Origin: an uncultured Anaerolineae bacterium
Lineage (GTDB): Bacteria; Chloroflexota; Anaerolineae; VGOG01
Assembly (NCBI GenBank): GCA_964390805.1
Contig: CAYMKL010000006.1
Span: 7,895 to 71,894 of the forward strand
Direction of reading: 5' to 3'
DNA: 64,000 bases
Shown here piece by piece: positions 11,440-46,984 of this stretch. The notes under the pieces were generated by a model, which did not search any database, was not told where the DNA came from, and saw nothing but the letters and a program-made list of their open reading frames with translations. Each line of letters begins with the position of its first letter. Position 1 is the first letter of the stretch. Made by a program: the position numbers and the translations under genes.

Positions 11440-13881
11440 ATGAGTTCCGCTGCCACTCTTCAGGGCCTGCTTCACAATCCTCACGGCCTTGAGCATCCCT
11501 ATGAGCAGGAACCCACGGAACGCTTCCCGCGTCATCCGATGGCTGGTGAACCTGTCGCATTAGGAGTGGCGACCTGGCCAGCCGAGACCGCCGAAGCTGT
11601 GTGGGCCACCTGGCAAAGGGAGTCATCTCCTGAGGAAGGCCGAGCCGAGGGCCGTTGGGAGCGAGACGCCCAAGGTCAAAGCTACTGGCGTATCGAACTG
11701 CCGCCTTTCGGCCATCGAGAGCGAGTCGCCTACCGCTTGCACACCCAGCAAGGCGGACGACGTATATCCACTGAGGACTTCTCCTTTGTCGCTAACGGCT
11801 GGTCTCCTACAAAAGAAGTTGTCCGCTACCGCATCGCTCCCCAACACCTTGTACTCCAGTGCAAAGCGGGCGATCCAACTCTACGGCCTCGCGTGACGAT
11901 ATGCTTCCCTATGGCAAATACATTGCGCCTGCGATTGGCGGGTCTGGATTCGGCTCCTCCGGAGGATGTTGGGCGCCACGCCCCGTTCCGGGTGATGGAA
12001 GAAACGCTCAAGCACATTACCCTGGTTACAGAGAGGATAGAGTGTCGGATTAACCTCCAGCCCCTCCGCCTTGAGGTTTACAAACGGGACGGCACACCCC
12101 TTCTGCTCGAAACGGAGGCCATGGCGTGGCTGATGGGAGAATCGAACCACCCACTGCGAGTGCGTCAGACCTTCAGCAGCCCCCCCAGTGAGGGATTCTA
12201 CGGCTTCGGTGAGCGCTACAATGCCCTCGACCAGAGGGGGAATACCCTGGATGTTCGAGTATTTGACCAGTACAAAGGCCAAGACAAACGGACTTATCTT
12301 CCGATACCCTTTTTCCTTTCATCCCTGGGGCCCTACGGCCTTTACCTGAATACGAATCGCAACGTAGCTTATGACCTGGCTGCATCTCGTCCCGACCGAT
12401 GGTCATTCGACGCCGAACTGGGGCCGGACGCAAACCTGGAGTACCATTTGATCGCTGATGAAGATCCCAAGCACATCATCACTGGCTTCACTGACTTGGT
12501 CGGCAAACCCACGCTGCCGCCCAAATGGGCCTTCGGTCCCTGGATGAGCGGCAATGAATGGAACAGCCAAGCAGTGGTGATGGAGCAGGTGCAGAAAACC
12601 CTGGAGCATCGCATCCCAGCCACAGTGCTGGTCATTGAAGCCTGGAGTGATGAAGCCACCTTCTACATCTGGAATGACGCCCAACATGATCCAAAGCCTG
12701 GAAGCGATGCCTTCTCCAATGATGACTTCGCGTTTCCGCCTGATGGCAAGTGGCCTGATCCCAAAGGCATGATAGATGAATTGCATCGCCTAGGGATCCG
12801 AGTGCTGCTGTGGCAGATTCCGGTCATGAAGAAGCTGGAAGAACCACATCCTCAGCACGATGCGGACGAGGCTTACATGATCAAGAAGGAATACTGCGTC
12901 CATGAGGCTGATGGACGACCCTATCGGGTGCGCCCCTTCTGGTTTAACGGCAGTCTGCTGCTGGACGTTACCAATCCCGACGCGGTGCGCTGGTGGCTGA
13001 GCAAACGCGCCTACCTTCTGGACGACCTGGGAGTGGATGGCTTCAAGACCGACGGGGGGGAACACCTCTGGGGGCGAGACCTCCGCTTTGCCGATGGCCG
13101 GCGGGGAGACGAGCTTTGGAACCTCTACCCAAACTTGTACGCCAATGCTTACTACCGCTTTGTCCAGGACAAGCGACAGGGCGATGGAATCACTTTCAGT
13201 CGAGCAGGGTTCACCGGAGCGCAAGCTCATCCCTGCCACTGGGCTGGAGATGAGGACTCTACTTGGGAGGCTTTCCGCTATTCCGTCCTGGCCGGGCTGA
13301 GCGCGGGCATTTCAGGCATCCCTTTCTGGGGTTGGGACCTGGCCGGTTTCAGCGGAGAAATCCCGTCGGCCGAGCTTTATCTCCGGGCCGCGGCTATGGC
13401 AGTCTTCTGTCCCATCATGCAGTACCACTCAGAGTACAACGAACACCGCAAGCCCTGCCGAGACCGCACCCCCTGGAACATCGCCGAGCGCACTGGTGAG
13501 CCGAGGGTCATCGAACTATATCGCCGCTTCGCCCAACTGCGCATGGAACTGCTGCCCTACATCGAGGCTGAGGCCGCCCACTGCGGGGCTACAGGCGAAC
13601 CTCTGATGCGGCCGCTATTCTTGGATTGGCCCGAAGACCCAGTGGCATGGAAGATTGCCGACCAGTATTGCTTCGGGCGGGCATTGCTGGTGGCTCCGGT
13701 GGTCGAATCCGGCGTTACTCAGCGACACCTTTACCTACCCGCGGGGAAGTGGGAAGACTTCTGGGATGGGACTCGCCTGACCGGTGGCCAATGGATCACA
13801 CGACCGGCTCCACTGGACGTAGTTCCTGTCTACCGCCGCCTGGACGCTTCCTGGCCGGGCCTCTCACTCTGGCCTGGTTGA
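11440..13881 (+). CDS. Glycoside hydrolase family 31 (alpha-glucosidase/alpha-xylosidase, YicI-like)
   Basis: The catalytic region motif VDGFKTDGGE matches the DCFKTDFGE motif of YicI. Length (813 aa) and domain order are typical of GH31. Confidence 0.85.
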   Translation: MSSAATLQGLLHNPHGLEHPYEQEPTERFPRHPMAGEPVALGVATWPAETAEAVWATWQRESSPEEGRAEGRWERDAQGQSYWRIELPPFGHRERVAYRLHTQQGGRRISTEDFSFVANGWSPTKEVVRYRIAPQHLVLQCKAGDPTLRPRVTICFPMANTLRLRLAGLDSAPPEDVGRHAPFRVMEETLKHITLVTERIECRINLQPLRLEVYKRDGTPLLLETEAMAWLMGESNHPLRVRQTFSSPPSEGFYGFGERYNALDQRGNTLDVRVFDQYKGQDKRTYLPIPFFLSSLGPYGLYLNTNRNVAYDLAASRPDRWSFDAELGPDANLEYHLIADEDPKHIITGFTDLVGKPTLPPKWAFGPWMSGNEWNSQAVVMEQVQKTLEHRIPATVLVIEAWSDEATFYIWNDAQHDPKPGSDAFSNDDFAFPPDGKWPDPKGMIDELHRLGIRVLLWQIPVMKKLEEPHPQHDADEAYMIKKEYCVHEADGRPYRVRPFWFNGSLLLDVTNPDAVRWWLSKRAYLLDDLGVDGFKTDGGEHLWGRDLRFADGRRGDELWNLYPNLYANAYYRFVQDKRQGDGITFSRAGFTGAQAHPCHWAGDEDSTWEAFRYSVLAGLSAGISGIPFWGWDLAGFSGEIPSAELYLRAAAMAVFCPIMQYHSEYNEHRKPCRDRTPWNIAERTGEPRVIELYRRFAQLRMELLPYIEAEAAHCGATGEPLMRPLFLDWPEDPVAWKIADQYCFGRALLVAPVVESGVTQRHLYLPAGKWEDFWDGTRLTGGQWITRPAPLDVVPVYRRLDASWPGLSLWPG

Positions 13882-13939
13882 ATCCTGACAATTGCCCCCT
13901 GCCCGGTTTAACACTCATTTTCAGGAGGACCAACGTTTC

Positions 13940-15019
13940 ATGGTCGACCTCTTCCAGCACAGCATCCACGTTATTCTGGCTAATCAAGCCCCCACGGGGG
14001 CCTACATCGCCTCACCCAGTTTTCCCACCTACCACTACTCCTGGTTTCGCGATGGCGCCTTCATCGCCCACGCCATGAACACGGTCGGCCAACACGAAAG
14101 CGCGCGTCGCTTCCACGACTGGGCAGCCCGCACCATCCTGGGCCACGCGGACAAGGCCAAACGAGCTATTGAGAAAGTCGAACGGGGTGAACCCGTGGGC
14201 GAGGATTACTTGCACACGCGCTATACGCCGAACGGAGAGGAAGGGCCGGGTGACTGGCCTAGCTTCCAACTGGACGGATTCGGAACCTGGCTGTGGGCCC
14301 TGGCCGAACACCTCCGCCTGACAGCCGACCCACTCCCCTCCCACTGGCAGCAAGCCGCCCACCTCAGCGGCTCGTATCTGGCTGCCCTCTGGCGTTTCCC
14401 CTGCTTCGACCTCTGGGAAGAGCATCCGGACAAGATCCACCCCTACACCCTGGCGGCCATCTACGCGGGCCTGCGGGCCATCGGTGAGCTGACCGGCAAC
14501 GCGGGCTGGCTTGCCATTGCCGTCGAGATCCGCCGCTTCGTGCTGGAGCACGGCGTGCAGGGCAGCCATCTAGTGAAATATGTGGGAAGCGAGGCTGTTG
14601 ACGCCAGCCTGGTGGGCGTTGCCACCCCCTACCGCCTGCTGGCGCCGGATGATCCAATCATGCACACCACCGTAGCCAGGATCGAGGGCGACCTGCGCCA
14701 TCAAGCTGGAGGGCTGCACCGCTACGCCGATGACACCTACTACGGCGGCGGTGAATGGGTGTTGCTGGCCACCTGGCTGGGCTGGTATTATGTCGAGATT
14801 GGAGAACAAGCCAGGGCGCGAGAGTTGCTGGCCTGGGTGGAAGCCCAGGCTGACGGGGAGGACAACCTCCCAGAACAGATCCCTCAGACCCTCAATGACC
14901 CATCCATGCTTCAGCCCTGGGTCGAGAAGTGGGGCCCCATCGCCCGCCCCCTGCTCTGGTCCCACGCTATGTACCTTATCCTTCTTCACGCTCTTTGTCC
15001 GGCACCCGGACCAACCTGA
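13940..15019 (+). CDS. Glycoside hydrolase family 15-like (glucoamylase/glucodextranase-type (alpha/alpha)6 barrel)
   Basis: YSWFRDGAFIA motif (GH15 WxRDG). RBS GGAGG precedes the ATG at 13940. The ORF track starts at a TTG at 13892. Confidence 0.7.
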   Translation: MVDLFQHSIHVILANQAPTGAYIASPSFPTYHYSWFRDGAFIAHAMNTVGQHESARRFHDWAARTILGHADKAKRAIEKVERGEPVGEDYLHTRYTPNGEEGPGDWPSFQLDGFGTWLWALAEHLRLTADPLPSHWQQAAHLSGSYLAALWRFPCFDLWEEHPDKIHPYTLAAIYAGLRAIGELTGNAGWLAIAVEIRRFVLEHGVQGSHLVKYVGSEAVDASLVGVATPYRLLAPDDPIMHTTVARIEGDLRHQAGGLHRYADDTYYGGGEWVLLATWLGWYYVEIGEQARARELLAWVEAQADGEDNLPEQIPQTLNDPSMLQPWVEKWGPIARPLLWSHAMYLILLHALCPAPGPT

Positions 15020-15090
15020 TGACTCTTTTCACGGGAACCAGAGAAGGAAAAAGCCGCCGACTTTCGCGCTCAGTCGGCGGCTTTGCTTTG
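14252..15090 (+). repeat. Copy 1 of a ~0.83 kb direct duplication (3' two-thirds of the GH15 gene plus its terminator)
   Basis: About 98-99% identical to 25287-26110 over the coding part. Aligned by eye, e.g. cggaacctggctgtgg[g/t]ccctggccgaacacctccgcctgacagccgacc. Confidence 0.85.
15046..15090 (+). terminator. Rho-independent terminator hairpin (GCCGCCGAC-loop-GTCGGCGGC followed by a T-run)
   Basis: aaaaagccgccgactttcgcgctcagtcggcggctttgctttg lies immediately after the GH15 stop. Confidence 0.7.
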
Positions 15091-15193
15091 TCGCTTATTC
15101 ACCTTGCCCTGCCCAGGCGAGAGCCCCGCCAGTGGTACTTACACAACCCCGCGCACTGTGATCAGATAATGACCCCATCCCATTGCGGGGGAG

Positions 15194-16558
15194 TCAGCCA
15201 CACCTTTCTCCCCAATTCGCCGCCACCTGCATGATGTCCACGATGTCTATACGACAGTCGCCATTCAGGTCGTAGCGAGCCTCGTAGCTGGGCGTAGCCG
15301 GGTTGCTGTCAGGATCGGGGTTCTCACATGAGGTACTCCAACGGCTGGCAACGAGCATGATGTCCACAATGTCCACATCGCCATCACCATCCACGTCGGC
15401 AGGGAGGACACAGGCAGGTCGCGTGCTGTGGAAGATGTCCCAGTTGAAAGCGGAGACCTCCTCAGCCCAGGCAGCATGGACCGTGCCGTTGTTGACAAAC
15501 AGCGCCGGGTCGGAAATGCCGAAAACGTCGCTGGCCACTGGCTCGCGGGCAGACCACGTGCTGGTGGCAGCGTATAGCTCGCGTCCCATGATGACGCTGC
15601 CCTCATCCCAGAGGAGAAACCCACTGCCGGCCGAGCTGATGTCCAGCGCCGGGAACTTGGCGCTCTCCAACGTGCCTGACACGTCGTCGGCTTGCGCCCA
15701 ATCGCCTGGTTTCCCTGACACATGGTAGATGGCCGTGTTGAAACCGAGCGCTTCCTGCCAGACGATGTGCACCGTGTTGTCTGGTGCCACAGCGAGGGAA
15801 GGGACCGTCGAGGTCTCATCTGGCGTGGCGGAAATGTTCTCGGGAAGGGACCAGGAACCACCACTCAACTGCGTATGCCAGATCTCGTTAAGGCCAGTGT
15901 CCGCGTCCGGACTCTGCCAGGCCAGGTGAAGGATGCCGTCGTAGCCAATGGCCAGTGCCGGTGCACTGCCCGTCCCATTGGGAATGGGGAACGTTGACCA
16001 CGCGCTCCCATCGCTCGATTGCCCGTGGTAGAGAGCCGTTGCCCCGCCCGTGTTGTCCGCCCAGATGATGTGCAGGCTGTTGCCGGGCACGAAGGCGATG
16101 ACAGGCGAAGAGGAGACGCCAGAGGTGGCAGAGACATTCACCGGCAATGTCCACCCCCCACCATCCCAGCGAGCATAGAAGACATCGAACACACCCCCAA
16201 TCTCGGAGACGAAGGCCATGTGCACTCCGTCGCTGCTATCGAGGGCCAACGACGGGCTGTCGCCCAGCACCGCCTGGACCGGCGTCGTCCACGAGCCACT
16301 GCTGCCGCTGGTGTAGTAGATGCTCTCTTCCTCTTCCCACACCATGTACACGGTTCCGCTCCCCGTGACCACCAAGCTTGGCGCCCTGGAATCAGTGGCG
16401 GTGCTAGCCAAGTTCTCAGGTGTGGCCCATTCCTGCAGTGCGCTTGCGACCGTAGAAGGCACTGTGGTAGGCAAGGGGGCATCCCCAGCGGCGGCTGAGG
16501 ATGCCCCGATCACGATAGCACAGCAAAGAGTAATGGCGAGAAGGGATACTCGATGCAT
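15194..16558 (-). CDS. Secreted beta-propeller-like repeat protein with a C-terminal type I dockerin domain
   Basis: Signal peptide. Six repeats of about 40 aa (SGxSWTxP...DGxxHxAW, BNR/sialidase-like). The C-terminus has two dockerin calcium-binding repeats (DVDGDGDVDIVDIMLVA and DLNGDCRIDIVDIMQVA). Confidence 0.7.
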   Translation of the reverse strand: MHRVSLLAITLCCAIVIGASSAAAGDAPLPTTVPSTVASALQEWATPENLASTATDSRAPSLVVTGSGTVYMVWEEEESIYYTSGSSGSWTTPVQAVLGDSPSLALDSSDGVHMAFVSEIGGVFDVFYARWDGGGWTLPVNVSATSGVSSSPVIAFVPGNSLHIIWADNTGGATALYHGQSSDGSAWSTFPIPNGTGSAPALAIGYDGILHLAWQSPDADTGLNEIWHTQLSGGSWSLPENISATPDETSTVPSLAVAPDNTVHIVWQEALGFNTAIYHVSGKPGDWAQADDVSGTLESAKFPALDISSAGSGFLLWDEGSVIMGRELYAATSTWSAREPVASDVFGISDPALFVNNGTVHAAWAEEVSAFNWDIFHSTRPACVLPADVDGDGDVDIVDIMLVASRWSTSCENPDPDSNPATPSYEARYDLNGDCRIDIVDIMQVAANWGERCG

Positions 16559-18159
16559 CAGTCACTCTCGAAGACCTTGATGCGATGGGCTACCAGGGTG
16601 CCATCGTCTTGGAGCAAGGCCGTGACGCGAGCCAGGGCGCCGAGTTCGACCTCGCCATTTTGGGTATCTATCGCCGTGTCCGCCGTGACCTCGATCGAAA
16701 CATTGCTGCCATCTTCAGTAGTGATGGTCCAGATTCCGATGTGATTCACGGTCCCCGGCAATTCCGCGATGATGCCGCGAATCCTCACTGGCTCAAGGCT
16801 GGGGTCTTTGACCTCGATCTCGGTGGCGCGCACAATCCGCGGCCCTACCTTCGTACCCTTGACCTCAGCCAGCAGTCCCACTCGCGGAGTGGCGCCTGTG
16901 ATAATAGTGGCATGGGTGATGAGCACGGTCACGCCACCGACAATCCACACATCATCCTCAATGCTCTCTATACGGCCCCTGAATTCGACTTCAGGGTACT
17001 TGACCACGATAAGCTTGGCTAGCACGGAGCGGTTGTCCAGGAGGAAGCCCTGCACCTTCACGTGGGCGCCCACTCGTAGCTCGCCCTCAATACGGGTGTG
17101 GTCGTTGATGAACACATCAACCAACGCGGCCGCGGAATCGGTGGTTGTCCAGACGTTCACCACGATCTTTCTTGGAGGGTTTCCTTCCATCTCTACGATG
17201 GTACCACGGAACTCCACCTCATGTGGATGATCTCCATCCCGAATGTGTATCTTCAAAGCCAGGATAGTGCCGTCCTCCCGGCGGACAGCGGTTACTTTCG
17301 CCCAATCCCCCACTTCCGGCCTGACTTCGGGTGGTCTGATCTCGGTATTCTCATTGACCAAGAAGGTGACAGCCGTGGAGTTGGTGGTTGCCACCGTCCA
17401 CTCGCCGATCAACCCGGCCGGCAGGTCGGTGATCCTGCCTTCGAAGCGTACCCATTCATGCCCGTGGTCCTCCAGCACTTCGATCTCGGTGGCCAGGATG
17501 CTGCCGTTCTCTTGAAGGACGCCCTTGCCCTTTATCTCCTGGCCCACTTCCAAGTCGCCAAACGTAATGGGGTTACCATCGGCGTCCTTGATCTCCGTGT
17601 TCTCGTCCGTGACCACGGTGAGAGTGCGAGATCCCATCTGCACCGTCAGAGTTGGAAGTGGTGTAACAGCGACCTCGTCGGACTTGGCAATGATGATGCC
17701 ACGGAAACCAACTTGAGCATCGTCGGTCTGCTTCACGTGGATCTTGCGGGCCAGGACACTGCCATCGTTCTGGAGAACGCCCTCTACTTCGACCCGCTGA
17801 CCCACGGCCAGATCAGCGATGGTGCCTTCCTCTCGCTCATGTCCGATGCGGATGCGCGTGTTGGCGTTGATGTGAACGGTCCACGTGGTCGGCGTGACGG
17901 GCGTCAGGGATGCTGCATCGTTTACGGTCTCGACGGTGATGGTGCCAGTAACCGAGTCAGTTCCAGAGGAGATGCTTCTGATGATGCCTCTGAACTCCAC
18001 CTCTTCTGGCTCGTCGGTTTCAGAGGGAGTTGCCACTTGCGGCAACTCCACCAATTCCTCTACGGCAACACTGCCGCTAGCCCCGGCAGTCGAGAACGAG
18101 CCGAGGATCGTGATGAGCATTAAGGCGAAAATCAGTAGTAGATTTGTCTTTCTAGTCAT
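16558..18159 (-). CDS. Secreted/anchored protein with six tandem DUF5666-like repeats of about 85 aa
   Basis: N-terminal TM/signal segment. Repeated units VEFRG(I/T)I...NTxI...G.L.VG..V.V.G.L..DGS.LA..I.V. RBS AAAGGAG precedes the ATG at 18159, which is internal to the 18279 ORF. Confidence 0.65.
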   Translation of the reverse strand: MTRKTNLLLIFALMLITILGSFSTAGASGSVAVEELVELPQVATPSETDEPEEVEFRGIIRSISSGTDSVTGTITVETVNDAASLTPVTPTTWTVHINANTRIRIGHEREEGTIADLAVGQRVEVEGVLQNDGSVLARKIHVKQTDDAQVGFRGIIIAKSDEVAVTPLPTLTVQMGSRTLTVVTDENTEIKDADGNPITFGDLEVGQEIKGKGVLQENGSILATEIEVLEDHGHEWVRFEGRITDLPAGLIGEWTVATTNSTAVTFLVNENTEIRPPEVRPEVGDWAKVTAVRREDGTILALKIHIRDGDHPHEVEFRGTIVEMEGNPPRKIVVNVWTTTDSAAALVDVFINDHTRIEGELRVGAHVKVQGFLLDNRSVLAKLIVVKYPEVEFRGRIESIEDDVWIVGGVTVLITHATIITGATPRVGLLAEVKGTKVGPRIVRATEIEVKDPSLEPVRIRGIIAELPGTVNHIGIWTITTEDGSNVSIEVTADTAIDTQNGEVELGALARVTALLQDDGTLVAHRIKVFESD

Positions 18160-18590
18160 TGGTATTCTCCTTTTCGTCATGGTTTGTTGGTGCGGGCAGG
18201 TCTCATCGTTGCTCCCTCTAGGTCTAGGCAGTGGCCCGCCGCTGTCTACGGTAGCTGGTCCCACCGATGACCGCCACAACCTACACCACGATCAGAGCGC
18301 CGACATGCCCACCATTCTATCATGTTTGCATATGCTTTGCTTGAAGTTTCCCTTGTGCTTACACTGCGTCTTTTCTACGGTTGCCTGCTGCTCGGCCAGG
18401 TGGCGAGAAACGCTGCGTCAGACATACAAAGAGATAGAACGATAGGCTCATTAGGTTATGCCCTTGAGGAGGACGAGAAATACATACCCAGAGCATCAGC
18501 GTAAACCCAGGCTCCGAGCCCCGTCCCCGGGGCGGCCCGAGGACGGGCCTTCGAGCATCAAGTTTACGGAAATGATACCCAGAGGTCCCC

Positions 18591-18618
18591 TTGCCTCTCC
18601 CTGCTACCTGTGGTATAC
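18591..18618 (+). promoter_or_regulatory. Candidate promoter (TTGCCT-16 nt-TGTGGTATACT extended -10) for the ECF sigma gene
   Basis: -35-like TTGCCT at 18591-18596 and an extended -10 TGtggTATACT at 18608-18618, about 90 nt upstream of the start at 18706. Confidence 0.25.
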
Positions 18619-18705
18619 TTCAGGTGCAGTAAAGACCCCTGACCCTTTGTCAGCCGCGTCCCATTCGTACGTATCGAACAACCCTTATTATCTAGCCATT
18701 GTGCC

Positions 18706-19257
18706 ATGTCTGATACCGACCGGAAACTAATCCTCGCCTGTCGCCGGAGCGACGAGCGCGCCTGGGAGACCCTCATTGGTCGCTACGAGCGCCTCGTCTT
18801 CTCCATCGCCCGCCGTCATGGGCTCTCTGCGGACGACGCTGCCGACGTCACGCAGAAGGTGTTCATCATCCTGTTGCAAAGCATGGACCGCCTGCCGGAC
18901 GACGTCAACCTGGGCGGCTGGTTGACCACCGTGACCCGCCGTCACACCTGGCGCGCCATGACTCGGCTAGGGCGAGAGTTGCCCGGCGAAAAGGAAAACA
19001 TCGCCGAGAGCGCCATCCTGCTCGGCTGCCAAGCCCCTGACCCCATTGACCGCTGGGAGACATTGCAGGCAGTACACGAGACCCTGAACCGCCTGGGCGA
19101 GCGCTGCCGGCAACTCCTGCTGGCCCTGTACTTCGACCCGAGCGAGCCTTCTTATGCTGAGGTAGCCTGCCGGCTGAACATGCCTGTGGGCAGCATCGGC
19201 CCCACCCGCGCCCGCTGCCTGATCAAGCTCAAGGCCCTACTCGAAGAGGAAAGCTGA
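18706..19257 (+). CDS. ECF-type RNA polymerase sigma factor (sigma-70 regions 2 and 4)
   Basis: Region 2 (WETLIGRYERLVFSIARRHGLSADDAADVTQKVFIIL) and region 4 HTH (SYAEVACRLNMPVGSIGPTRARCLIKL). Confidence 0.85.
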   Translation: MSDTDRKLILACRRSDERAWETLIGRYERLVFSIARRHGLSADDAADVTQKVFIILLQSMDRLPDDVNLGGWLTTVTRRHTWRAMTRLGRELPGEKENIAESAILLGCQAPDPIDRWETLQAVHETLNRLGERCRQLLLALYFDPSEPSYAEVACRLNMPVGSIGPTRARCLIKLKALLEEES

Positions 19258-19327
19258 GATGTATTTCTTGTCCCCTGTAAAAGCATAACTAAGTGACAAT
19301 ACCTGCACAATCTCTAGGAGGAGAGAG

Positions 19328-19954
19328 ATGGTTGCACGGACACGGATTCCATTTGAAACCCTGGCCGACCTGGTGGACGGTCGCCTCTCGGAAAGCGAAG
19401 CGGTCGAAGTGAGGCGCCGGCTGGCCAACGCCGACTCACGCACCCTGGAGGACCTGGCCTGGCTGGAAGCCCTGACCTCCATCTGCCAGACGATGTCCCT
19501 CGAAGTCCCACCAGAGCAGGTGCGCACAGCTCTGTGCGCCCACTTCCGCCGTTGGGCCGAGAGTCGCCGACAGCCTGGCCTTTTTGAGCGGCTGGTGGCC
19601 CAACTGACCTTCGACAGCCGGCTCCAGCCGGCTCTGGTGGGCGTTCGAAGTAGTCCGTCCGAGCCCGGCCAACTGCTCTACACCACCGACCGGATGGACA
19701 TCGAACTTCACCTCATGCCATCAGGGCCAGACCAAGTACGCATCCTGGGTCAGGCTTTGCCCCGTGACCCAGAACTGGATGTGGCTGATTGTCCAGTGCA
19801 ATTGCTGGCTGGGGAGCGAGAGATCGGCCTGACCAGCACCAACGAACTGGGCGAGTTTAGTTTCGAAGCTATCCCTGGCAGTGACTACACGCTAGTCCTG
19901 GTGAGTGAAGAGGGGGAGATCGAGCTTGAGTGCGTTGACCTCACCACTGGCTAA
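19328..19954 (+). CDS. Putative anti-sigma factor, cytoplasmic, with no TM segment
   Basis: Sits immediately downstream of the ECF sigma gene. Its N-terminus resembles anti-sigma N-domains (ETLADLVDGRLSESEAVEVRRRL). The call rests mainly on position and context. Confidence 0.45.
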   Translation: MVARTRIPFETLADLVDGRLSESEAVEVRRRLANADSRTLEDLAWLEALTSICQTMSLEVPPEQVRTALCAHFRRWAESRRQPGLFERLVAQLTFDSRLQPALVGVRSSPSEPGQLLYTTDRMDIELHLMPSGPDQVRILGQALPRDPELDVADCPVQLLAGEREIGLTSTNELGEFSFEAIPGSDYTLVLVSEEGEIELECVDLTTG

Positions 19955-22781
19955 GCTGCTTGACAGTCTCCTGGCTCAACCGGACACTGAGGCCAGGGTC
20001 GCTTTCCTACGCCAACGGGGGCAGTACGACACTGAGACGCTGGAAGCATTAGCCAAGGCTGGCGATGCTTTGGTGCGGGATGATCCCAGCCGTGGCACCC
20101 TGTTGGCAGAGGTTGTGGTCGAGCTGGCTGAGGCGCTGCCAGCTCCTTTAGCTGCTGCCCAGGCCCGTTACCTCCGCGCCCAGGCCCACGCCCTAGCTGG
20201 CGAGTGGACTCAAGCCCTGCCCCTCATTACTGCCGCTCGTGAGGGCTTCCTGGCTGCTGGCCGTCTGCAGGAGGCCATCCGTACCCGCGTGGGCGAGATG
20301 CACGCCCTCGCCGGCCTGGGCCGCTACCCAGAGGCACTGGCTGCTGGAGAGCGAGCCCTCGCTGAGACAGCAGATCCCTTTATAACCGCCCTAGTGGTTC
20401 AAAACCAAGGGCTGATCTACAATGTAATGGGACGCTACAGCGATGCCCTGGCCGCCTTCGACCGTGCTGCCGCCGGCTATGCCGCATTGGATCAAAGCGA
20501 GCGGCTCGGCCACGTCCACAACAACCGCGGCGTGACGCTCCTCAGTTTGGGCCGAGGGGACGAGACTGTCCAGGCCTTCCAGGAAGCAGAGGCCATCTTT
20601 GCTGCTAGGGGCCTAACCCTCCTCACCGCTCAAGCCCAGGCCAATCGCGGCGCAGCCCTATCGCTGATGGGCGACCATCGCACCGCGCTGGAAGCCTTCG
20701 AGACAGCACGGTGGACCTTTGAAGCACTGGAGCCAAGCGTCGAGCGTGGCACTTTGGACCTGGACACCGCCACCGCGTATCTGGCTCTCAATCTCTATCC
20801 GGAGGCACTGGCTACCTGCGACGAGGCATTGGCTAGCTTCCGTGCCGCCTCCATGCCATATGAGCAAGGCCAAGCTCTGGTCCGTCGGGCGGCGGCCCTG
20901 ACCGCCTTGGGGCAGCCAGCCGCAGCCGAAACAGCCCTGGCGGAGGCGGAAACCATCTTCCGCGAGCTGGGCAACGAACCCTGGCTGGCCATCGTCTGGC
21001 TGGAACAGGCCGCCCTTTGGGAGTCAATGGAGCGCGGCTATGAAGCCTTAACTGTTGCCCGGAAAACTCTGGCCCTCTGCGAACGCCTGGGCCAGGCTGT
21101 GCAAGGCACATACGCCCACCTGCGTCTGGCCGACCTGCTGGCCAAGCAGGACCACGAGACTGCACTGGCTCACTTGCAGAAAGCCCTGACCCAGGCCGAG
21201 AAGTTGGCCTTGCCCCAACTGCGCTATCGGGCCCACGCCCGACTGGGCCGGCTGTATCGGCTCCAGGAGCGAACTGACCAGGCCCTGTACCATCTAACGC
21301 AGGCAATAGAGGAAATCGAGCGCCTGCGGGCCACGCTGCCCCAAGAGACGCTGCGTACCGCCTTTCTGCGGGACAAACTGGCCCCTTACGAGAACCTGAT
21401 ACAGTTGTACCTGGCCATCGGTGATGAGAACGGATTGCGACAGGCCTTCGCCGTGGCCGAGCGAGCCCGGTCGAGAGCCCTATTGGACCTGCTGGCCGTT
21501 AGCATTGATGCCCGGCTCCAGGCCGCTGAAGCTGACGAGGCCCAGGCGACTTTGCGGCAGCAGCTGGAGGCAATGCGGGCCGACCTGGACCTGATTTACA
21601 ACGAGCTGTTGGCTGCCGATACCGAGACCGCAAAGGACGATCAGCGCGGCCCGCGCCTGGCCCGGCTCCGAGGTCAGGCGCACCAGCACGAGCAGGAGAT
21701 CACCCGCCTGCGCCTGCGCCTGGAGGCCGTTGGCCCTGGTTACCTCGACGTGGCTCGCCCGCTCTCGCTGGAAGCGATCCAGGCCACGCTGCCCCAACGG
21801 GCACGCCTGCTGGCTTACTACATCGTCGGCGACGAACTACTGGCCTTCGTCGTCAGCCCTCGTTCAGACATGAGGGTTTACCGTCGGCTGACCCCATCCA
21901 GCGAACTGGCGCCAGCCCTGGACCGGCTGGGGATGCAGTGGAATCGCTTTCGCCTCGGTGACGAGTACGTGGCCCGCCATCGGGCGGCCTTGGAGCAGAG
22001 CGCCCATGCTGCCCTGGCCGATCTCTACGACCAGTTGGTGCGTCCACTGGCCAATGACCTGGATGGCGAGCAACTGATCATCGTCCCCTATGGACCACTG
22101 CATGGGGTTCCCTTCCATGCCTTGTACGACGGCCAGAGCTATCTCATCGAGCGCTACGAGATTTCCTATGCTACCAGCGCCACCGTCATGGCGCGCTGCC
22201 AGGCCCGGCCGCATCAGCCGCTGGAACAGGCGCTAGTGGTCGGCGTCCCCGATGCCGGCATCCCTTACGTCGCCCAGGAGGCAGAGACCGTGGCAGCCCT
22301 GCTCCCCCAGGCGCAGCTTCTGCAGGGGAAAGAAGCTACCATACCTGCGCTGCGGGCCACGGCGCCGGGTCGGGATCTCCTTCACCTGGCCTGTCATGGG
22401 CTGTTCCGGACCGATAGCCCTCTTTTCTCCGCTCTACGGCTGGGGGACGGCTGGTTGACCGTGGCCGAGGCAGCCGAGTTGGAGCTGCAGGCCGGGTTGG
22501 TGACTCTCAGCGCTTGTGAATCCGGCCGCAGTCGGGTAGTAGAAGGCGATGAATTACTGGGATTGACGCGAGCCTTTCTGGGGAGTGGGGCAGCGTCGCT
22601 GATCGTCAGCCTGTGGCTGGTCAACGACGCCAGCACTGCCCGCCTGATGGAGGAATTCTATCGCTGTTTGCAGGCCGGTCAATCCAAAGCCGCGGCCCTC
22701 CGGGCCGCCCAACGGGCACTGCTGGCCACCAAGAGCCATCCTTATTACTGGGCCCCGTTCGTACTGGTGGGACAGAGTTGA
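19905..22781 (+). CDS. TPR-repeat protein with a C-terminal CHAT (caspase-like) protease domain
   Basis: About 600 aa of TPR-like helical repeats. The C-terminal CHAT motif has a His/Cys dyad (LHLACHGLF...LVTLSACESGRS). The 5' end overlaps the previous gene by 50 nt; the true start is uncertain (GTG or TTG). Confidence 0.8.
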   Translation: MKRGRSSLSALTSPLAKLLDSLLAQPDTEARVAFLRQRGQYDTETLEALAKAGDALVRDDPSRGTLLAEVVVELAEALPAPLAAAQARYLRAQAHALAGEWTQALPLITAAREGFLAAGRLQEAIRTRVGEMHALAGLGRYPEALAAGERALAETADPFITALVVQNQGLIYNVMGRYSDALAAFDRAAAGYAALDQSERLGHVHNNRGVTLLSLGRGDETVQAFQEAEAIFAARGLTLLTAQAQANRGAALSLMGDHRTALEAFETARWTFEALEPSVERGTLDLDTATAYLALNLYPEALATCDEALASFRAASMPYEQGQALVRRAAALTALGQPAAAETALAEAETIFRELGNEPWLAIVWLEQAALWESMERGYEALTVARKTLALCERLGQAVQGTYAHLRLADLLAKQDHETALAHLQKALTQAEKLALPQLRYRAHARLGRLYRLQERTDQALYHLTQAIEEIERLRATLPQETLRTAFLRDKLAPYENLIQLYLAIGDENGLRQAFAVAERARSRALLDLLAVSIDARLQAAEADEAQATLRQQLEAMRADLDLIYNELLAADTETAKDDQRGPRLARLRGQAHQHEQEITRLRLRLEAVGPGYLDVARPLSLEAIQATLPQRARLLAYYIVGDELLAFVVSPRSDMRVYRRLTPSSELAPALDRLGMQWNRFRLGDEYVARHRAALEQSAHAALADLYDQLVRPLANDLDGEQLIIVPYGPLHGVPFHALYDGQSYLIERYEISYATSATVMARCQARPHQPLEQALVVGVPDAGIPYVAQEAETVAALLPQAQLLQGKEATIPALRATAPGRDLLHLACHGLFRTDSPLFSALRLGDGWLTVAEAAELELQAGLVTLSACESGRSRVVEGDELLGLTRAFLGSGAASLIVSLWLVNDASTARLMEEFYRCLQAGQSKAAALRAAQRALLATKSHPYYWAPFVLVGQS

Positions 22782-22787
22782 GTTGAT

Positions 22788-24968
22788 GTGTGGGAGGTGA
22801 TGATCGTGTTTCAACGTAGTAAGTTACTGCAGGTGCTTGGTATTCTGCTGGCGCTGCTGGCGTTGCTGGGGACAGCTTCCTACGCTCAGGATGAGAACGA
22901 TGACAGCCCCAAGGACCTCAAATACGAGGCCATACGTGTCCTAGAAGGCCATATCGCGCCGGAGTATACTTCGCTTGACGATCCCATCAGGCAGGCCATT
23001 GAGCACATCAGGAAGAGTCTGGAGGACGAGCTTTGGGAGACCGATTGGAGCTTAACCAGCAAGGGCAAGGCGGTCTTCGACGAAGAGAAGGCGGCTGTTG
23101 AGATATTAATGAAGATTCGGGAGGCAGCCGATGCCGATCCCGTGATAACGAACAGCGCCCTGGCGGCCATCCGGTATCTAACTACAGCCGACCGGGCCCT
23201 GGCCTACACAGCCATCGAGCAGGCTATCGCGAGGGCCCAGGCAGCCGGCTGCTATGCCACAGACAGTTATGACAGCAAGTGCCAAAGGCTCTTGCACAGG
23301 ATTGCCCAGGCCCAGAGGGAAATGGCCAAGGCCGAGGAGGAGATGGCCAACGACAGGTATGACACGGCCATTGATCACTACAAGAAGGCCTGGCAACATG
23401 TCCAGTTTGATGAGCGTCACTTATATGGTTTTGTGAAGAGCATGCCCGATCCTGATCCTGACGGGCAGTTCATCGGCATCTGGGTAGTAGTAAGCAGCTC
23501 CGGCGTTGAAGCCACCTTTGTGGCCGAGGCCAGCACCGACTTTGAAGAGAATCACGGGCCGCTGGAAGTACGAGCCTATGTCAAGGTCACGTACTTCGTT
23601 CTAGATGGCATCAACTATGCTGACAAGATCGAGACCAAGAAGTACTACGTGTCGGACCAAGTGATAGCTCGCTTGAAACCCGAGGCGGACGTAGCAGGCA
23701 TCCATAGCGACTATAACGCATTGACTCTAGACCATCTGCTGGATCGGATCTACCTGCTAAGCCTGCAGCCCGGAACCAATGAGCGAGATACCGTGGACAC
23801 CATGCGCAACGACTCGCGTTTCGAATACGCCGAGCCCAACCTATTTGGAGAGATGCCGGAGGCCAACCCTTATCAGATCGGTGCGTGGGCCGGCTATGAT
23901 CCCGCGCCAGCCCTGGCTCAGTACGCCAACGAACACCTGGCCCTGCCCCTGGCCCGCGAATTGAGCACCGGCAGCGGCGTGGTCGTGGCCGTGTTGGATA
24001 CCGGCGTCCAACTGAACCATCCCACCCTGTCGCCACATCTGGTCACCGGCTACGACTTCGTGGACGACGACATCGTACCAGCCGATGAAGGGAATGGCCT
24101 CGACGATGACAGCGATGACCTGATTGACGAGGCCGTTGGACACGGTACCCACGTATCTGGCATCGTCCTCCTGGTGACCTCCGAGAGCCAGATCATGCCC
24201 CTGAGGGTTCTGAATAGCGACGGGATAGGAAATGTTTTCCAACTAGCCGAGGCCATAATCTACGCCGCCGACCATGGCGCCAAAGTGATCAACATGAGCC
24301 TGGGAACTAACCTTCAATCCGGCGTGCTGGCGGAAGCGGTTAACTATGCCCGTGCGGCAGGGGTGATGGTCGTGGCTGCAGCCGGCAACCTGAATAGCAC
24401 CGAACCTCAGTACCCTGCCGGCGACGAAGGGGTGATTGCCGTAGCTGCCCTGGACGAGGAGCGGCTGAAGACCAGTTTCTCCAATTATGGATCATGGGTT
24501 GACCTGTCCGCGCCGGGAGAGAGCATCTACAGCACCTACCCGATTGATGGTTATGGCTGGTGGAGCGGCACCTCGATGGCCACGCCCTTTGTCAGTGGAC
24601 AGATCGCCCTGCTGCGCTCGCTGGCTCCCTGGCTGACCCTGGCCCAAATCGAAGGGCAGTTAGCGTCCAAGGTCCACGGGTTGGATGAACTCAACCCGGA
24701 CTACGCTGGACAACTTGGGTCTGGCGAGCCGGACGTGGCCGCCAGCCTGGGCTGCCACTGGGCGGATGTACAGCCAGACGCCACCCACGACTTGCTGAAC
24801 AACACCTGCGACGACGACGTGGACATCGCTGACGTGATGGCCGTGGCAGCCCAGTGGGGCCAACCACAGCCACCGGGCAGTGTCTACGACAACGATCACG
24901 ATGGGGACATAGATATCGTGGATATCCAACAAGTGGCCAACCGTTGGGGCTGGAGACGCCAGCCGTAG
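22788..24968 (+). CDS. Secreted subtilisin-like serine protease (peptidase S8) with a C-terminal dockerin
   Basis: Signal peptide. Catalytic triad motifs VAVLDTGV, GHGTHVSG and GTSMATPFVSG. C-terminal dockerin repeats DDDVDIADVMAVAAQW and DHDGDIDIVDIQQVANRW. Confidence 0.85.
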   Translation: MWEVMIVFQRSKLLQVLGILLALLALLGTASYAQDENDDSPKDLKYEAIRVLEGHIAPEYTSLDDPIRQAIEHIRKSLEDELWETDWSLTSKGKAVFDEEKAAVEILMKIREAADADPVITNSALAAIRYLTTADRALAYTAIEQAIARAQAAGCYATDSYDSKCQRLLHRIAQAQREMAKAEEEMANDRYDTAIDHYKKAWQHVQFDERHLYGFVKSMPDPDPDGQFIGIWVVVSSSGVEATFVAEASTDFEENHGPLEVRAYVKVTYFVLDGINYADKIETKKYYVSDQVIARLKPEADVAGIHSDYNALTLDHLLDRIYLLSLQPGTNERDTVDTMRNDSRFEYAEPNLFGEMPEANPYQIGAWAGYDPAPALAQYANEHLALPLARELSTGSGVVVAVLDTGVQLNHPTLSPHLVTGYDFVDDDIVPADEGNGLDDDSDDLIDEAVGHGTHVSGIVLLVTSESQIMPLRVLNSDGIGNVFQLAEAIIYAADHGAKVINMSLGTNLQSGVLAEAVNYARAAGVMVVAAAGNLNSTEPQYPAGDEGVIAVAALDEERLKTSFSNYGSWVDLSAPGESIYSTYPIDGYGWWSGTSMATPFVSGQIALLRSLAPWLTLAQIEGQLASKVHGLDELNPDYAGQLGSGEPDVAASLGCHWADVQPDATHDLLNNTCDDDVDIADVMAVAAQWGQPQPPGSVYDNDHDGDIDIVDIQQVANRWGWRRQP

Positions 24969-25145: not shown

Positions 25146-25186
25146 AAAGCCGCCGACTGAGCGCAACAGTCGGCGGCTTTGTTTTG
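25146..25186 (+). terminator. Rho-independent terminator hairpin of the GCCGCCGAC family
   Basis: aaagccgccgactgagcgcaacagtcggcggctttgttttg lies after the S8 protease gene. It is nearly the reverse complement of the 15046 hairpin. Confidence 0.65.
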
Positions 25187-25262
25187 ACCCTTGCTCACTT
25201 CAATTGGAATTGTGCTCTGAGGCAAGCCCCTGGGCGATGACTACCTACACACCCACTACACC

Positions 25263-26060
25263 GTGGACGGTCACAAAGTCACTGACGACTGGCCCAACTT
25301 CCAACTGGACGGCTTCGGAACCTGGCTGTGGTCCCTGGCCGAACACCTCCGCCTGACAGCCGACCCACTCCCCTCCCACTGGCAGCAAGCCGCCCACCTC
25401 AGCGGCTCGTATCTGGCTGCCCTCTGGCGTTTCCCCTGCTTCGACCTCTGGGAAGAGCATCCGGACAAGATCCACCCCTACACCCTGGCGGCCATCTACG
25501 CGGGCCTGCGGGCCATCGGTGAGCTGACCGGCAACGCGGGCTGGCTTGCCATTGCCGTCGAGATCCGCCGCTTCGTGCTGGAGCACGGCGTGCAGGGCAG
25601 CCATCTAGTGAAATATGTGGGAAGCGAGGCTGTTGACGCCAGCCTGGTGGGCGTTGCCACCCCCTACCGCCTGCTGGCGCCGGATGATCCAATCATGCAC
25701 ACCACCGTAGCCAGGATCGAGGGCGACCTGCGCCATCAAGCTGGAGGGCTGCACCGCTACGCCGATGACACCTACTACGGCGGCGGTGAATGGGTGTTGC
25801 TGGCCACCTGGCTGGGCTGGTATTATGTCGAGATTGGAGAACAAGCCAGGGCGCGAGAGTTGCTGGCCTGGGTGGAAGCCCAGGCTGACGGGGAGGACAA
25901 CCTCCCAGAACAGATCCCTCAGACCCTCAATGACCCATCCATGCTTCAGCCCTGGGTCGAGAAGTGGGGCCCCATCGCCCGCCCCCTGCTCTGGTCCCAC
26001 GCCATGTACGTCATCCTCCTACATGCTCTTCATCTAGCACCCAAAAGAAAGGGAACCTGA
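25263..26060 (+). pseudogene. Truncated duplicate of the GH15 gene, lacking the 5' third
   Basis: Its 265-aa ORF is nearly identical to residues 120-360 of the GH15 at 13940-15019. There is no upstream catalytic N-terminal region and no RBS. Confidence 0.7.
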
Positions 26061-26110
26061 GAAGGAAAAAGCCGCCGATGAGTGCAAGAGTCGGCGGCTT
26101 GGTTTTGTTT
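25287..26110 (+). repeat. Copy 2 of the ~0.83 kb direct duplication (GH15 3' portion plus terminator)
   Basis: See copy 1 at 14252-15090. Confidence 0.85.
26066..26110 (+). terminator. Rho-independent terminator hairpin of the GCCGCCGAC family
   Basis: gaaggaaaaagccgccgatgagtgcaagagtcggcggcttggttttg. The upstream flank is the same as at the 15046 copy. Confidence 0.6.
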
Positions 26111-26126
26111 CTCGTTCACCACGAAA

Positions 26127-46922: not shown

Positions 46923-46984
46923 CGTCCCTCCTATCGGCGCGGCATCGGGACTCAATCGCCAGGCGGCTACCACCTGGCGACAAT

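Follow-up and report, generated by a model that had tools for sequence, protein, structure and literature searches.

What connects a sigma factor, a small protein of anti-sigma type, a caspase-like protease and an exported subtilase whose genes stand in one co-directional string in the genome of an uncultured Anaerolineae bacterium? The string lies on contig CAYMKL010000006.1 within a stretch of 64,000 nucleotides, referred to here as the window, and forms a cassette of four plus-strand open reading frames (ORFs). These encode, in order, a sigma factor of the extracytoplasmic function (ECF) type, an anti-sigma-like protein (ASL, our working name for ORF2), a TPR-CHAT protein and an S8 subtilase. 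An earlier note, drawn from the DNA letters and their translations, had read the string as one regulated unit and as a signal-activated proteolytic cascade. We are very confident that the four genes form a functional module. Within this module, we give roughly even odds (about 0.5) to a mechanism in which the CHAT protease inactivates ASL, the sigma factor is freed, and the subtilase is transcribed and exported.

The four ORFs span 18706-19257 (183 aa), 19328-19954 (208 aa), 19905-22781 (958 aa) and 22788-24968 (726 aa), all on the plus strand. The coordinates, the strand, the 70-nt gap, the overlap and the 6-nt gap are as previously given. Tiny intergenic gaps alone are common in bacteria. 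The module goes beyond chance because dozens of loci keep its gene order between unrelated flanks. Scans with ASL or CHAT as anchor assembled 61 loci from Chloroflexota, Rubrobacteraceae and Acidobacteriota, which were scored with the four window proteins. An ASL-alignment scan of one genome per species contributed 20 loci, a metagenome scan 35 more, and look-ups of ASL and CHAT homologues the further ones. The ECF gene stands immediately upstream and co-directional in 47/47 assessable loci whose ASL has the N-terminal domain, and CHAT is the next gene after ASL in 52 of the 57 assessable loci. An S8 gene is adjacent in 32 of the 33 loci with a complete CHAT gene and enough sequence (directly downstream in 30). 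Gene neighbourhoods of CHAT homologues likewise show ECF, ASL and S8 partners recurring across loci, with the same cassette in 3/3 CHAT-anchored look-ups. Together with the unrelated flanks, these counts uphold the claim of a single unit.

Carriers include Anaerolineae, Chloroflexia/Roseiflexaceae, Rubrobacter marinus, other Rubrobacteraceae and Pyrinomonadaceae. Among them, Rubrobacter marinus SCSIO 52915 (locus L013) is in culture, and its genome is complete (NZ_CP045121). Cross-clade identity is 51-58% for ECF, 32-45% for ASL, 42-48% for CHAT and 36-52% for the S8 core, and in the two most distant loci all four identities fall to about 27-36%. Flanking genes are unrelated between loci, with dehydrogenases in one and RsbR/S/T-like genes elsewhere. 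Many loci are closely related (67-80% ASL identity), as expected if adjacency were inherited synteny without functional coupling. We consider this explanation extremely improbable, given that three phyla keep this order between unrelated flanks at an ASL identity of 27-45%, and that left boundaries differ even among close relatives. The S8 gene also stays linked after rearrangement, being displaced upstream in one locus (L025) and upstream and inverted in another (L023). The cassette is common in environmental bacteria, since an ASL profile recovers 211 cluster representatives at E<=1e-30 among 1.84 billion and 1550 at E<=1e-10, and CHAT relatives comprise at least 120 full-length clusters at 44-50% identity or better.

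The genes for ASL and CHAT overlap or lie end to end in most loci, with a 4-nt overlap to a 3-nt gap in several. Above roughly 35% ASL identity, the gene after ASL is without exception CHAT, and translational coupling is frequent. Such tight coupling suggests co-translated partners that work together. Degenerate copies were also found. In one metagenome-assembled genome (CAZGKH01), the cassette is intact at L006, and a further copy, L009, retains only ~50-80 aa of CHAT and an S8 without the catalytic Ser motif; in L017, CHAT is frameshifted and S8 absent. L009 and L017 look like decaying copies that are losing parts together. In the window, the CHAT start is more likely TTG 19926 (951 aa) than 19905, because a Shine-Dalgarno sequence (GAGGGGGAG) precedes it and gene callers elsewhere also give 951 aa. 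With this start, the ASL/CHAT overlap is 29 nt. Similarly, S8 more likely starts at ATG 22800 (722 aa), 18 nt past the CHAT stop, because GGAGGTG precedes that codon.

The sequence is also compatible with one transcription unit, because it offers a promoter-like site, a terminal hairpin with a T-run and, internally, a terminator match at chance level only. The candidate promoter is a sigma-70-type consensus match, TTGCCT-17-TATACT with a TG extension (18591..18619, plus strand). This block and a ~85-nt leader are kept in most close relatives and the sequence further upstream is unrelated between loci, so that the block is the left edge of the region conserved among close relatives. Distant loci L001 and L012 carry TTGACA-17-TACAAT at the equivalent position. 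At the other end, a GC-rich hairpin (25146..25187, plus strand by direct reading; its arms are the inverted repeat I1) is followed by TTTGTTTT and is a probable intrinsic terminator closing the four-gene unit. The promoter/terminator scan reported this hairpin on the minus strand only. Internal terminators would have spoken for separate transcripts. The sole internal site, within CHAT (22398-22420), was dismissed, as the scan gave 2 sites against 5.0 expected by shuffling.

The first gene encodes a group IV (ECF) sigma factor of 183 aa that is RpoE/AlgU-like (18706..19257, plus strand). Pfam assigns Sigma70_r2 (E 1.5e-11) and Sigma70 r4_2 at 23.6 bits, slightly below its cutoff of 25.7. Membership in the ECF group follows from NCBIfam TIGR02937 (sigma70-ECF), with 65.8 bits against a cutoff of 42.9. 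The nearest solved sequences are AlgU and RpoE (E about 5e-9).

ASL (208 aa; 19328..19954, plus strand) gave no family above threshold in Pfam or NCBIfam, and its description draws on an AlphaFold2 (AF2) model (pLDDT 71.6) and on family profiles. The model shows a helical N-domain (aa ~9-94, nt 19352-19609) of four to five helices, among them 9-16, 22-32, 37-55 and 63-79. A low-confidence, disordered linker (aa 84-110, nt 19577-19657) leads to an eight-stranded beta-sandwich (aa 114-204, nt 19667-19939). Family members scanned singly match CarboxypepD_reg in 23/24 cases. Ten of the 24 also match zf-HC2 (PF13490) weakly (best E 0.002), and one matches RskA_N. A profile of the N-domain recovers family member P0359 (profile E 3e-7), which itself carries PF13490. 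P0359 and the distant L060 protein retain the canonical H-x3-C-x2-C at the aligned position, where the window ASL lacks the zinc ligands (RRLANADSRT versus AHVADCPRCA of P0359). These links bear out the earlier assignment of ORF2 to the anti-sigma type. The N-domain is thus probably homologous to zf-HC2/ASD, a homology that runs through the family, and ASL is best read as a zinc-less derivative of a ZAS-type anti-sigma domain joined to a beta-sandwich. The best PDB match of the ASL and N-domain searches, 9hnh_A, is a repeat match and was set aside as spurious. ASL is soluble, because it has no hydrophobic segment: neither a transmembrane segment nor a signal peptide was detected, and its maximum hydropathy is 0.84 (family 0.59-1.43). 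Distant ECF-ASL pairs that occur without CHAT or S8 (L050, L060) fit ASL as a genuine sigma partner in its own right.

The third gene encodes a TPR-CHAT caspase-like cysteine protease (19905..22781, plus strand; 958-aa ORF), assigned through Pfam (CHAT E 4.9e-72 plus TPR repeats), AF2 and Foldseek. About 12 TPR pairs (aa 6-466) are followed by a helical region, and the CHAT domain occupies aa ~716-949. The AF2 model (pLDDT 82, pTM 0.70) follows this order and places a small beta unit between the helical segment and the CHAT domain. Foldseek placed DdvA first among PDB matches (8rw5/8rot_A, E 2e-14), followed by Csx29 and separase (7nj1, 9hn4, 5u1s). By sequence, the protein is remote from DdvA, Csx29 and separases, and its likeness to DdvA is too low for phmmer. 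The catalytic residues, His824 (nt 22395-22397) and Cys864 (nt 22515-22517), are invariant in 28 diverse CHAT sequences, and the dyad motifs are present in 29 of 31 distinct homologues among the locus copies. Hydropathy analysis found neither a signal peptide nor a transmembrane segment. The protein was earlier called cytoplasmic, which agrees with this absence, and its dyad is intact.

The fourth gene encodes a secreted S8 subtilase (22788..24968, plus strand; 726-aa ORF), recognised by Pfam, hydropathy and motifs. Its order is that of a secreted pre-pro enzyme. A predicted signal peptide (nt 22800-22886; hydrophobic N-terminus with a hydropathy of 2.24, then AYA/QD) precedes a clade-specific N-terminal extension of ~280 aa, a Fervidolysin-type prodomain (nt ~23631-23840) and the catalytic domain (nt ~23970-24665; Peptidase_S8 E 4.4e-50). 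The triad follows in order as Asp400 (nt 23997), His451 (nt 24150) and Ser592 (nt 24573). Strict patterns find the triad motifs in 23/28 distinct homologues, and a signal peptide is present at every S8 N-terminus read across the loci. Export of the subtilase, as first proposed, is therefore well founded on its predicted signal peptide. The C-terminus had been named a type I dockerin, a wording that goes too far, as Dockerin_1 scores 15.9 bits (E 0.015), under the Pfam cutoff of 22.9. We describe it as a dockerin-like tail (nt ~24810-24944), which has two D-rich loops, DDDVDIADV and DNDHDGDIDIVDI. It resembles the C-terminus of L004 and L009 relatives of the window protein at 15194-16558 (phmmer E 2e-6 to 9e-6), and that window protein is a Pfam dockerin (E 1.1e-8). 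Domains outside the S8 core vary: the L024 enzyme has a C-terminal DUF5666 domain, and most of the distant loci have neither the extension nor the dockerin-like tail. Residues ~206-290 of the window S8 also resemble DUF5666 proteins. In a close relative, L031 (9510-9680), the coding region of the S8 signal peptide is interrupted by an insert of ~130 nt with long terminal inverted repeats (GTCATTGCGAGGAGTGGAGCGACGAAGCAATCTCC ... GGAGATTGCTTCGCTACGCTCGCAATGAC), which looks like a miniature inverted-repeat transposable element.

How could these four proteins act together? The sigma factor, ASL and CHAT are predicted to be cytoplasmic and the subtilase exported. On topological grounds, a direct CHAT-to-S8 cascade is unlikely: S8 carries a signal peptide, and neither that nor a transmembrane segment is present in ASL or CHAT. 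The proteolytic cascade proposed in the earlier note thus gives way to a transcriptional link that runs from the protease through the anti-sigma and the sigma factor to the S8 gene, which is better supported. In the proposed mechanism, ASL would sequester the ECF sigma factor and keep it inactive, and the TPR solenoid of the CHAT protein would sense a cytoplasmic cue. The activated protease would then inactivate ASL, most likely through a cut, for which the conserved disordered linker is a possible place. With the released sigma factor, RNA polymerase would be guided to the neighbouring S8 promoter and perhaps also to the operon of the sigma factor itself. Once exported, the subtilase would mature by loss of its prodomain and, in the clade of the window, may be tethered through the dockerin-like tail. 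This mechanism is proposed because the arrangement best matches, by analogy, DdvS/DdvA and Csx29/Csx30/CASP-sigma.

Both systems were described before. The statement that the string could not be matched to a described system thus needs correction, as two systems couple TPR-CHAT to ECF, namely DdvS/DdvA (PMC11506125) and craspase (PMC10028731). DdvA of Myxococcus xanthus is a transmembrane anti-sigma with a periplasmic TPR-CHAT and the partner ECF DdvS (PMC11506125, PMC6061681), and has been proposed to cleave itself, thereby releasing DdvS (PMC11506125). Like the cassette, DdvS/DdvA combines an ECF sigma factor, an anti-sigma domain and a TPR-CHAT of ~900 residues with a His-Cys dyad, and sigma release by CHAT proteolysis is proposed in both. 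The window protein shares with DdvA the separase/craspase-type TPR-CHAT fold and the dyad, and not the single polypeptide with a transmembrane segment. DdvA alone unites in one chain a zinc-bound ZAS domain, a transmembrane helix and a periplasmic dimeric TPR-CHAT, with cleavage by RseP to follow. The cassette, by contrast, encodes anti-sigma and TPR-CHAT as two soluble proteins, and its anti-sigma has lost the zinc ligands and gained a beta-sandwich. The linked output also differs, being an S8 subtilase in the cassette and CBASS/CRISPR for DdvS/DdvA. The search of the DdvA authors was limited to fused forms and returned Myxococcota and one Comamonas species only (PMC11506125).

Craspase (Cas7-11, Csx29, Csx30, Csx31 and CASP-sigma/RpoE) resembles the cassette in its cytoplasmic, monomer-type TPR-CHAT, its separate soluble sigma inhibitor and its ECF (PMC10028731). 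There, Csx29 cleaves the sigma inhibitor Csx30 and so frees CASP-sigma (PMC10028731). No Cas7-11, Csx30, Csx31 or CRISPR-like array was found in the 64-kb window or in the related loci read. RNA-guided activation is impossible for the window cassette because it has no Cas7-11, CRISPR array, Csx30 or Csx31. The Csx29 model NF041237 of NCBIfam reaches 51.5 bits on the window CHAT, against a cutoff of 300, and covers the CHAT domain only; unlike craspase Csx30, ASL is ZAS-derived. The cassette is therefore a split, soluble, CRISPR-independent relative of DdvS/DdvA and of Csx29/Csx30/CASP-sigma, and a member of neither. In a full-text literature search joining CHAT with ECF, the papers on DdvA and craspase and a single type III-B preprint were the only results, and the cassette is undescribed in them. 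The main text of the ECF re-classification names no CHAT-linked group and gives soluble anti-sigmas in only 10 groups, and the ECF Hub may already list this context.

More distant parallels share the logic and differ in the parts. The CalpL/CalpT/CalpS system consists of a Lon protease activated by cA4 from type III CRISPR, an anti-sigma and an ECF sigma factor. As proposed for the cassette, a soluble protease there cleaves a soluble anti-sigma and frees an ECF sigma factor in the cytoplasm. In CalpL, however, the protease is a SAVED-Lon rather than a CHAT protein, activation depends on cyclic oligoadenylate, and no subtilase is linked. Separase, a clan CD protease of TPR-like/CHAT type, resembles the window CHAT in joining a helical solenoid to a caspase-like domain, and it cuts after Arg in a disordered motif; unlike the cassette, separase-securin is eukaryotic and has no sigma factor. 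A loose parallel between the ASL linker Arg and a separase substrate or pseudosubstrate is speculation by analogy. Classical regulated proteolysis (RseA by DegS/RseP/ClpXP; RsiW by PrsW/RasP) follows the same course from signal through protease and anti-sigma destruction to ECF activity (PMC10028731, PMC11506125). RseA and RsiW span the membrane and receive their first cut outside the cytoplasm, whereas the three regulatory proteins of the window are predicted to be cytoplasmic.

This last difference bears on whether the subtilase could act upstream instead, as a site-1-type signalling protease or signal generator that controls the anti-sigma from outside through regulated intramembrane proteolysis. 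Extracytoplasmic proteases start many ECF cascades, DegS/RseA and PrsW/RsiW among them, and S8 is almost always linked to the cassette. ASL, however, has no transmembrane or exported part, as the low maximum hydropathy across its family indicates, and is out of the reach of S8; nor does the cassette encode a site-2 protease. We judge such a role very unlikely. The placement of S8 as output rather than passenger is supported by its near-universal linkage, its own upstream region, a GTAAC-N16-CGAC element (L001, L012) and shared upstream sequences (L022, Rubrobacteraceae). In distant loci, the upstream region of S8 measures 100-400 nt. The GTAAC-N16-CGAC element that stands there in L001 and L012 resembles ECF-type promoters, such as those of the Bacillus sigma-X type. 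In L022 (Pyrinomonadaceae-type; also L054 and L056), a ~22-nt sequence, CAATGyCkTTTTGGwAmAAAT, is common to the regions upstream of ECF (L022:2590-2640) and of S8 (6185-6215), which suggests common control of the two genes.

None of these elements qualified as a general target of the sigma factor. GTAAC-N16-CGAC is confined to L001 and L012, the ~22-mer is clade-specific, and AAAGAAC...CGT, found in the leader of the clade of the window, has variable spacing. Rubrobacteraceae loci (L011, L014, L015, L020, L039, L041, L044, L045, L052 and L053) carry GTTAGA repeats with 11-bp spacing (TTAGA-N4-TCTMA), with 35 matches against ~4 expected in 521 kb. The repeats precede ECF, S8, the conserved ~236-aa gene that follows S8, and one upstream gene (for example L011:9240-9285, 13600-13625 and 15105-15125). 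As a sigma target they were rejected, since they fit an OmpR-type regulator better.

Several observations weigh against the proposed mechanism. Neither ASL nor its N-domain matched any solved anti-sigma in the PDB, by sequence or by fold. Comparisons of ECF-upstream and S8-upstream regions gave clade-specific candidates only and no ECF-type promoter common to all clades, and the promoter at the front of the operon looks sigma-70-type. In Rubrobacteraceae, genes for an OmpR-type response regulator and a histidine kinase lie just upstream (L011:6404-8625). Other inputs evidently exist, as the sigma factor and anti-sigma domain give way to two-component parts in L057 and L058. Arg107, an invariant residue of a G-x-R motif in the ASL linker (nt 19646-19648), and the FDS motif persist in ASL relatives without an adjacent CHAT as well (L050, L060, L057), so that their conservation may be structural rather than that of a CHAT site. 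Finally, sigma-ASL binding, ASL as the CHAT substrate, the cleavage site and S8 as a sigma-dependent output are all steps that we infer. Arg107 was dropped as a firm CHAT-specific cleavage site because CHAT-less relatives keep it; as a P1 residue attractive for a clan CD protease, it stays a candidate only.

The variant loci show what the regulatory parts can be exchanged for. In L058 (844-6537) and L059, a hybrid histidine kinase, a TPR-CHAT protein and S8 are encoded together with a 128-aa protein that consists only of the linker motif and beta-sandwich; the sequence examined shows neither an ECF gene nor an anti-sigma domain. In L057 (604-3750), CHAT is missing; a LuxR-type response regulator is encoded divergently, and S8 stands next to a gene in which a receiver-like domain is joined to linker and beta-sandwich. 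Because of L057-L059 and the Rubrobacteraceae variants, the beta-sandwich/S8 pair is wired to several kinds of regulators, the sigma branch being one version. This wiring bears on whether CHAT is the anti-sigma protease at all. ASL might be controlled otherwise, through partner binding by its beta-sandwich or through ClpXP/Lon, and CHAT might be a regulon member or might cut the sigma factor, the cytoplasmic pre-S8 or a housekeeping target in the manner of separase or HetF. L058 and L059 imply a relationship of CHAT, beta-sandwich and S8 that is independent of sigma control, and the variants keep alive a substrate other than the anti-sigma function as such. ECF-ASL pairs without CHAT that keep the linker Arg (L050, L060) point the same way. 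We nevertheless regard this alternative as unlikely, while giving it serious weight. CHAT invariably follows the closer ASL homologues, often with translational coupling, both characterised TPR-CHAT/ECF systems act on a sigma inhibitor, and the exported S8 meets a cytoplasmic CHAT only as a precursor.

A separate matter is the biological role, for which an anti-phage or programmed-cell-death module comes into consideration. The TPR-CHAT would perceive an infection cue and the sigma factor would start a response with the exported subtilase as its local effector, for instance in degradation of the envelope or S-layer or in sacrifice of the cell or filament. Such a role is compatible with the proposed mechanism. 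The two TPR-CHAT/ECF couples known so far regulate defence (PMC11506125, PMC10028731), DdvA heads the structural matches, and sensing of an infection cue is proposed for DdvA and shown for craspase. Mobile or defence-type genes stand beside some cassettes: L001 has DDE transposases and ATPase_2/DUF234 proteins, and L026 has transposases and an MmeI-type restriction-modification system. The window cassette itself lies inside a ~10-kb segment bracketed by direct repeats, and a TIR-STAND protein is encoded 19 kb away. On the other hand, ECF, ASL and CHAT match no model of PADLOC-DB 2.0, in which S8 matches generic subtilase and IetS models only. Ordinary metabolic genes flank many of the loci, CBASS, CRISPR and other effectors are absent from the adjacent genes, and an exported protease would be unusual as an abortive-infection effector. 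We consider a defence role quite unlikely on balance.

Taken one step further, the proposed mechanism would define a widespread, CRISPR-independent and wholly cytoplasmic signalling module of caspase-like kind, in which a stand-alone TPR-CHAT of DdvA/craspase type perceives an intracellular cue, cleaves a dedicated zinc-less anti-sigma and thereby turns on, through ECF, a secreted and surface-tethered subtilase. This fuller picture, with the module as a free-standing relative of the fused DdvA and of the type III-E Csx29/Csx30/CASP-sigma branch, is advanced tentatively and at clearly less than even odds. If it is true, the stand-alone cassette is possibly the ancestral form of DdvA and Csx29/Csx30/CASP-sigma, and in Chloroflexota and Rubrobacteria it could serve defence or the programmed fate of cells or filaments. 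The cassette ties DdvA and craspase together through a simpler, split and soluble form, which bears on how type III-E systems acquired their protease-sigma arm. Bacterial CHAT and caspase-like proteases are abundant, and substrates are known for hardly any of them. In this case, the gene neighbourhood points to a specific substrate (ASL), a specific read-out (the ECF sigma factor) and a specific output gene (S8), and the biochemistry is approachable with four small constructs. The ECF repertoire would gain a soluble, zinc-less anti-sigma family with a beta-sandwich, comprising at least ~200 clusters at 50% identity. The cassette also offers a handle on the regulation of secreted proteases in the poorly studied Chloroflexota and Rubrobacteria.

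Divergent from the cassette, two minus-strand genes recognised by Pfam encode a dockerin/FG-GAP protein (15194-16558) and a six-repeat DUF5666 protein (16558-18279). The pair also lies upstream of the cassette in L004 and L009 and is absent from most distant loci; in L007 and L036, the DUF5666 protein is accompanied by no more than a short fragment of the dockerin protein. In L024 (10893-13584), the S8 that ends in DUF5666 is followed by a DUF5666 protein. The association of the pair with the cassette is possibly limited to the close clade, and the two proteins may be extracellular partners or substrates.

The cassette and the two divergent genes make up ~10 kb bracketed by a full GH15 gene and a partial copy. 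The duplication covers the 3' ~750-900 nt of the gene (regions 13892-15102 and 25227-26119). Within it, 14252-14995 and 25287-26030 are 98.7% identical over 744 nt, and the second copy leaves a truncated ORF at 25263-26060. This bracketing looks like the result of insertion, single-crossover integration or duplication-mediated rearrangement. The identical cassette was also assembled independently in L002 and L003, whose sequences break off within the GH15 duplication points or close to them. The GC-rich hairpin found after S8, AAAGCCGCCGAC...GTCGGCGGCTTT, occurs three times, at 15050-15084 (after GH15), 25146-25180 (after S8) and ~26067-26100 (after the GH15 fragment), and looks like a terminator. 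The region around the cassette otherwise holds housekeeping and sugar-utilisation genes.

Further genes deserve brief mention. The TIR protein mentioned above (977 aa; 44040-46973, minus strand) combines TIR, an AAA-type NTPase and TPR (TIR_2 E 1e-24), gives PADLOC matches to bSEFIR and ThsB-like models, and counts as a candidate defence gene of STAND-like type. A single ORF of the window is very large and encodes a bacterial alpha-2-macroglobulin (2055 aa; 551-6718, plus strand) with MG, bait-region, TED and Big_5 domains, so that a broad protease inhibitor is encoded in the same window as a secreted subtilase. Elsewhere, glycosyltransferase clusters follow S8 in L001 and L024. APH-family phosphotransferase genes lie a few genes downstream of the cassette in three loci (L001:18326-19612, L025:12683-13615 and L026:14963-15979), and in L050 such a gene (2292-3248) directly follows ASL.

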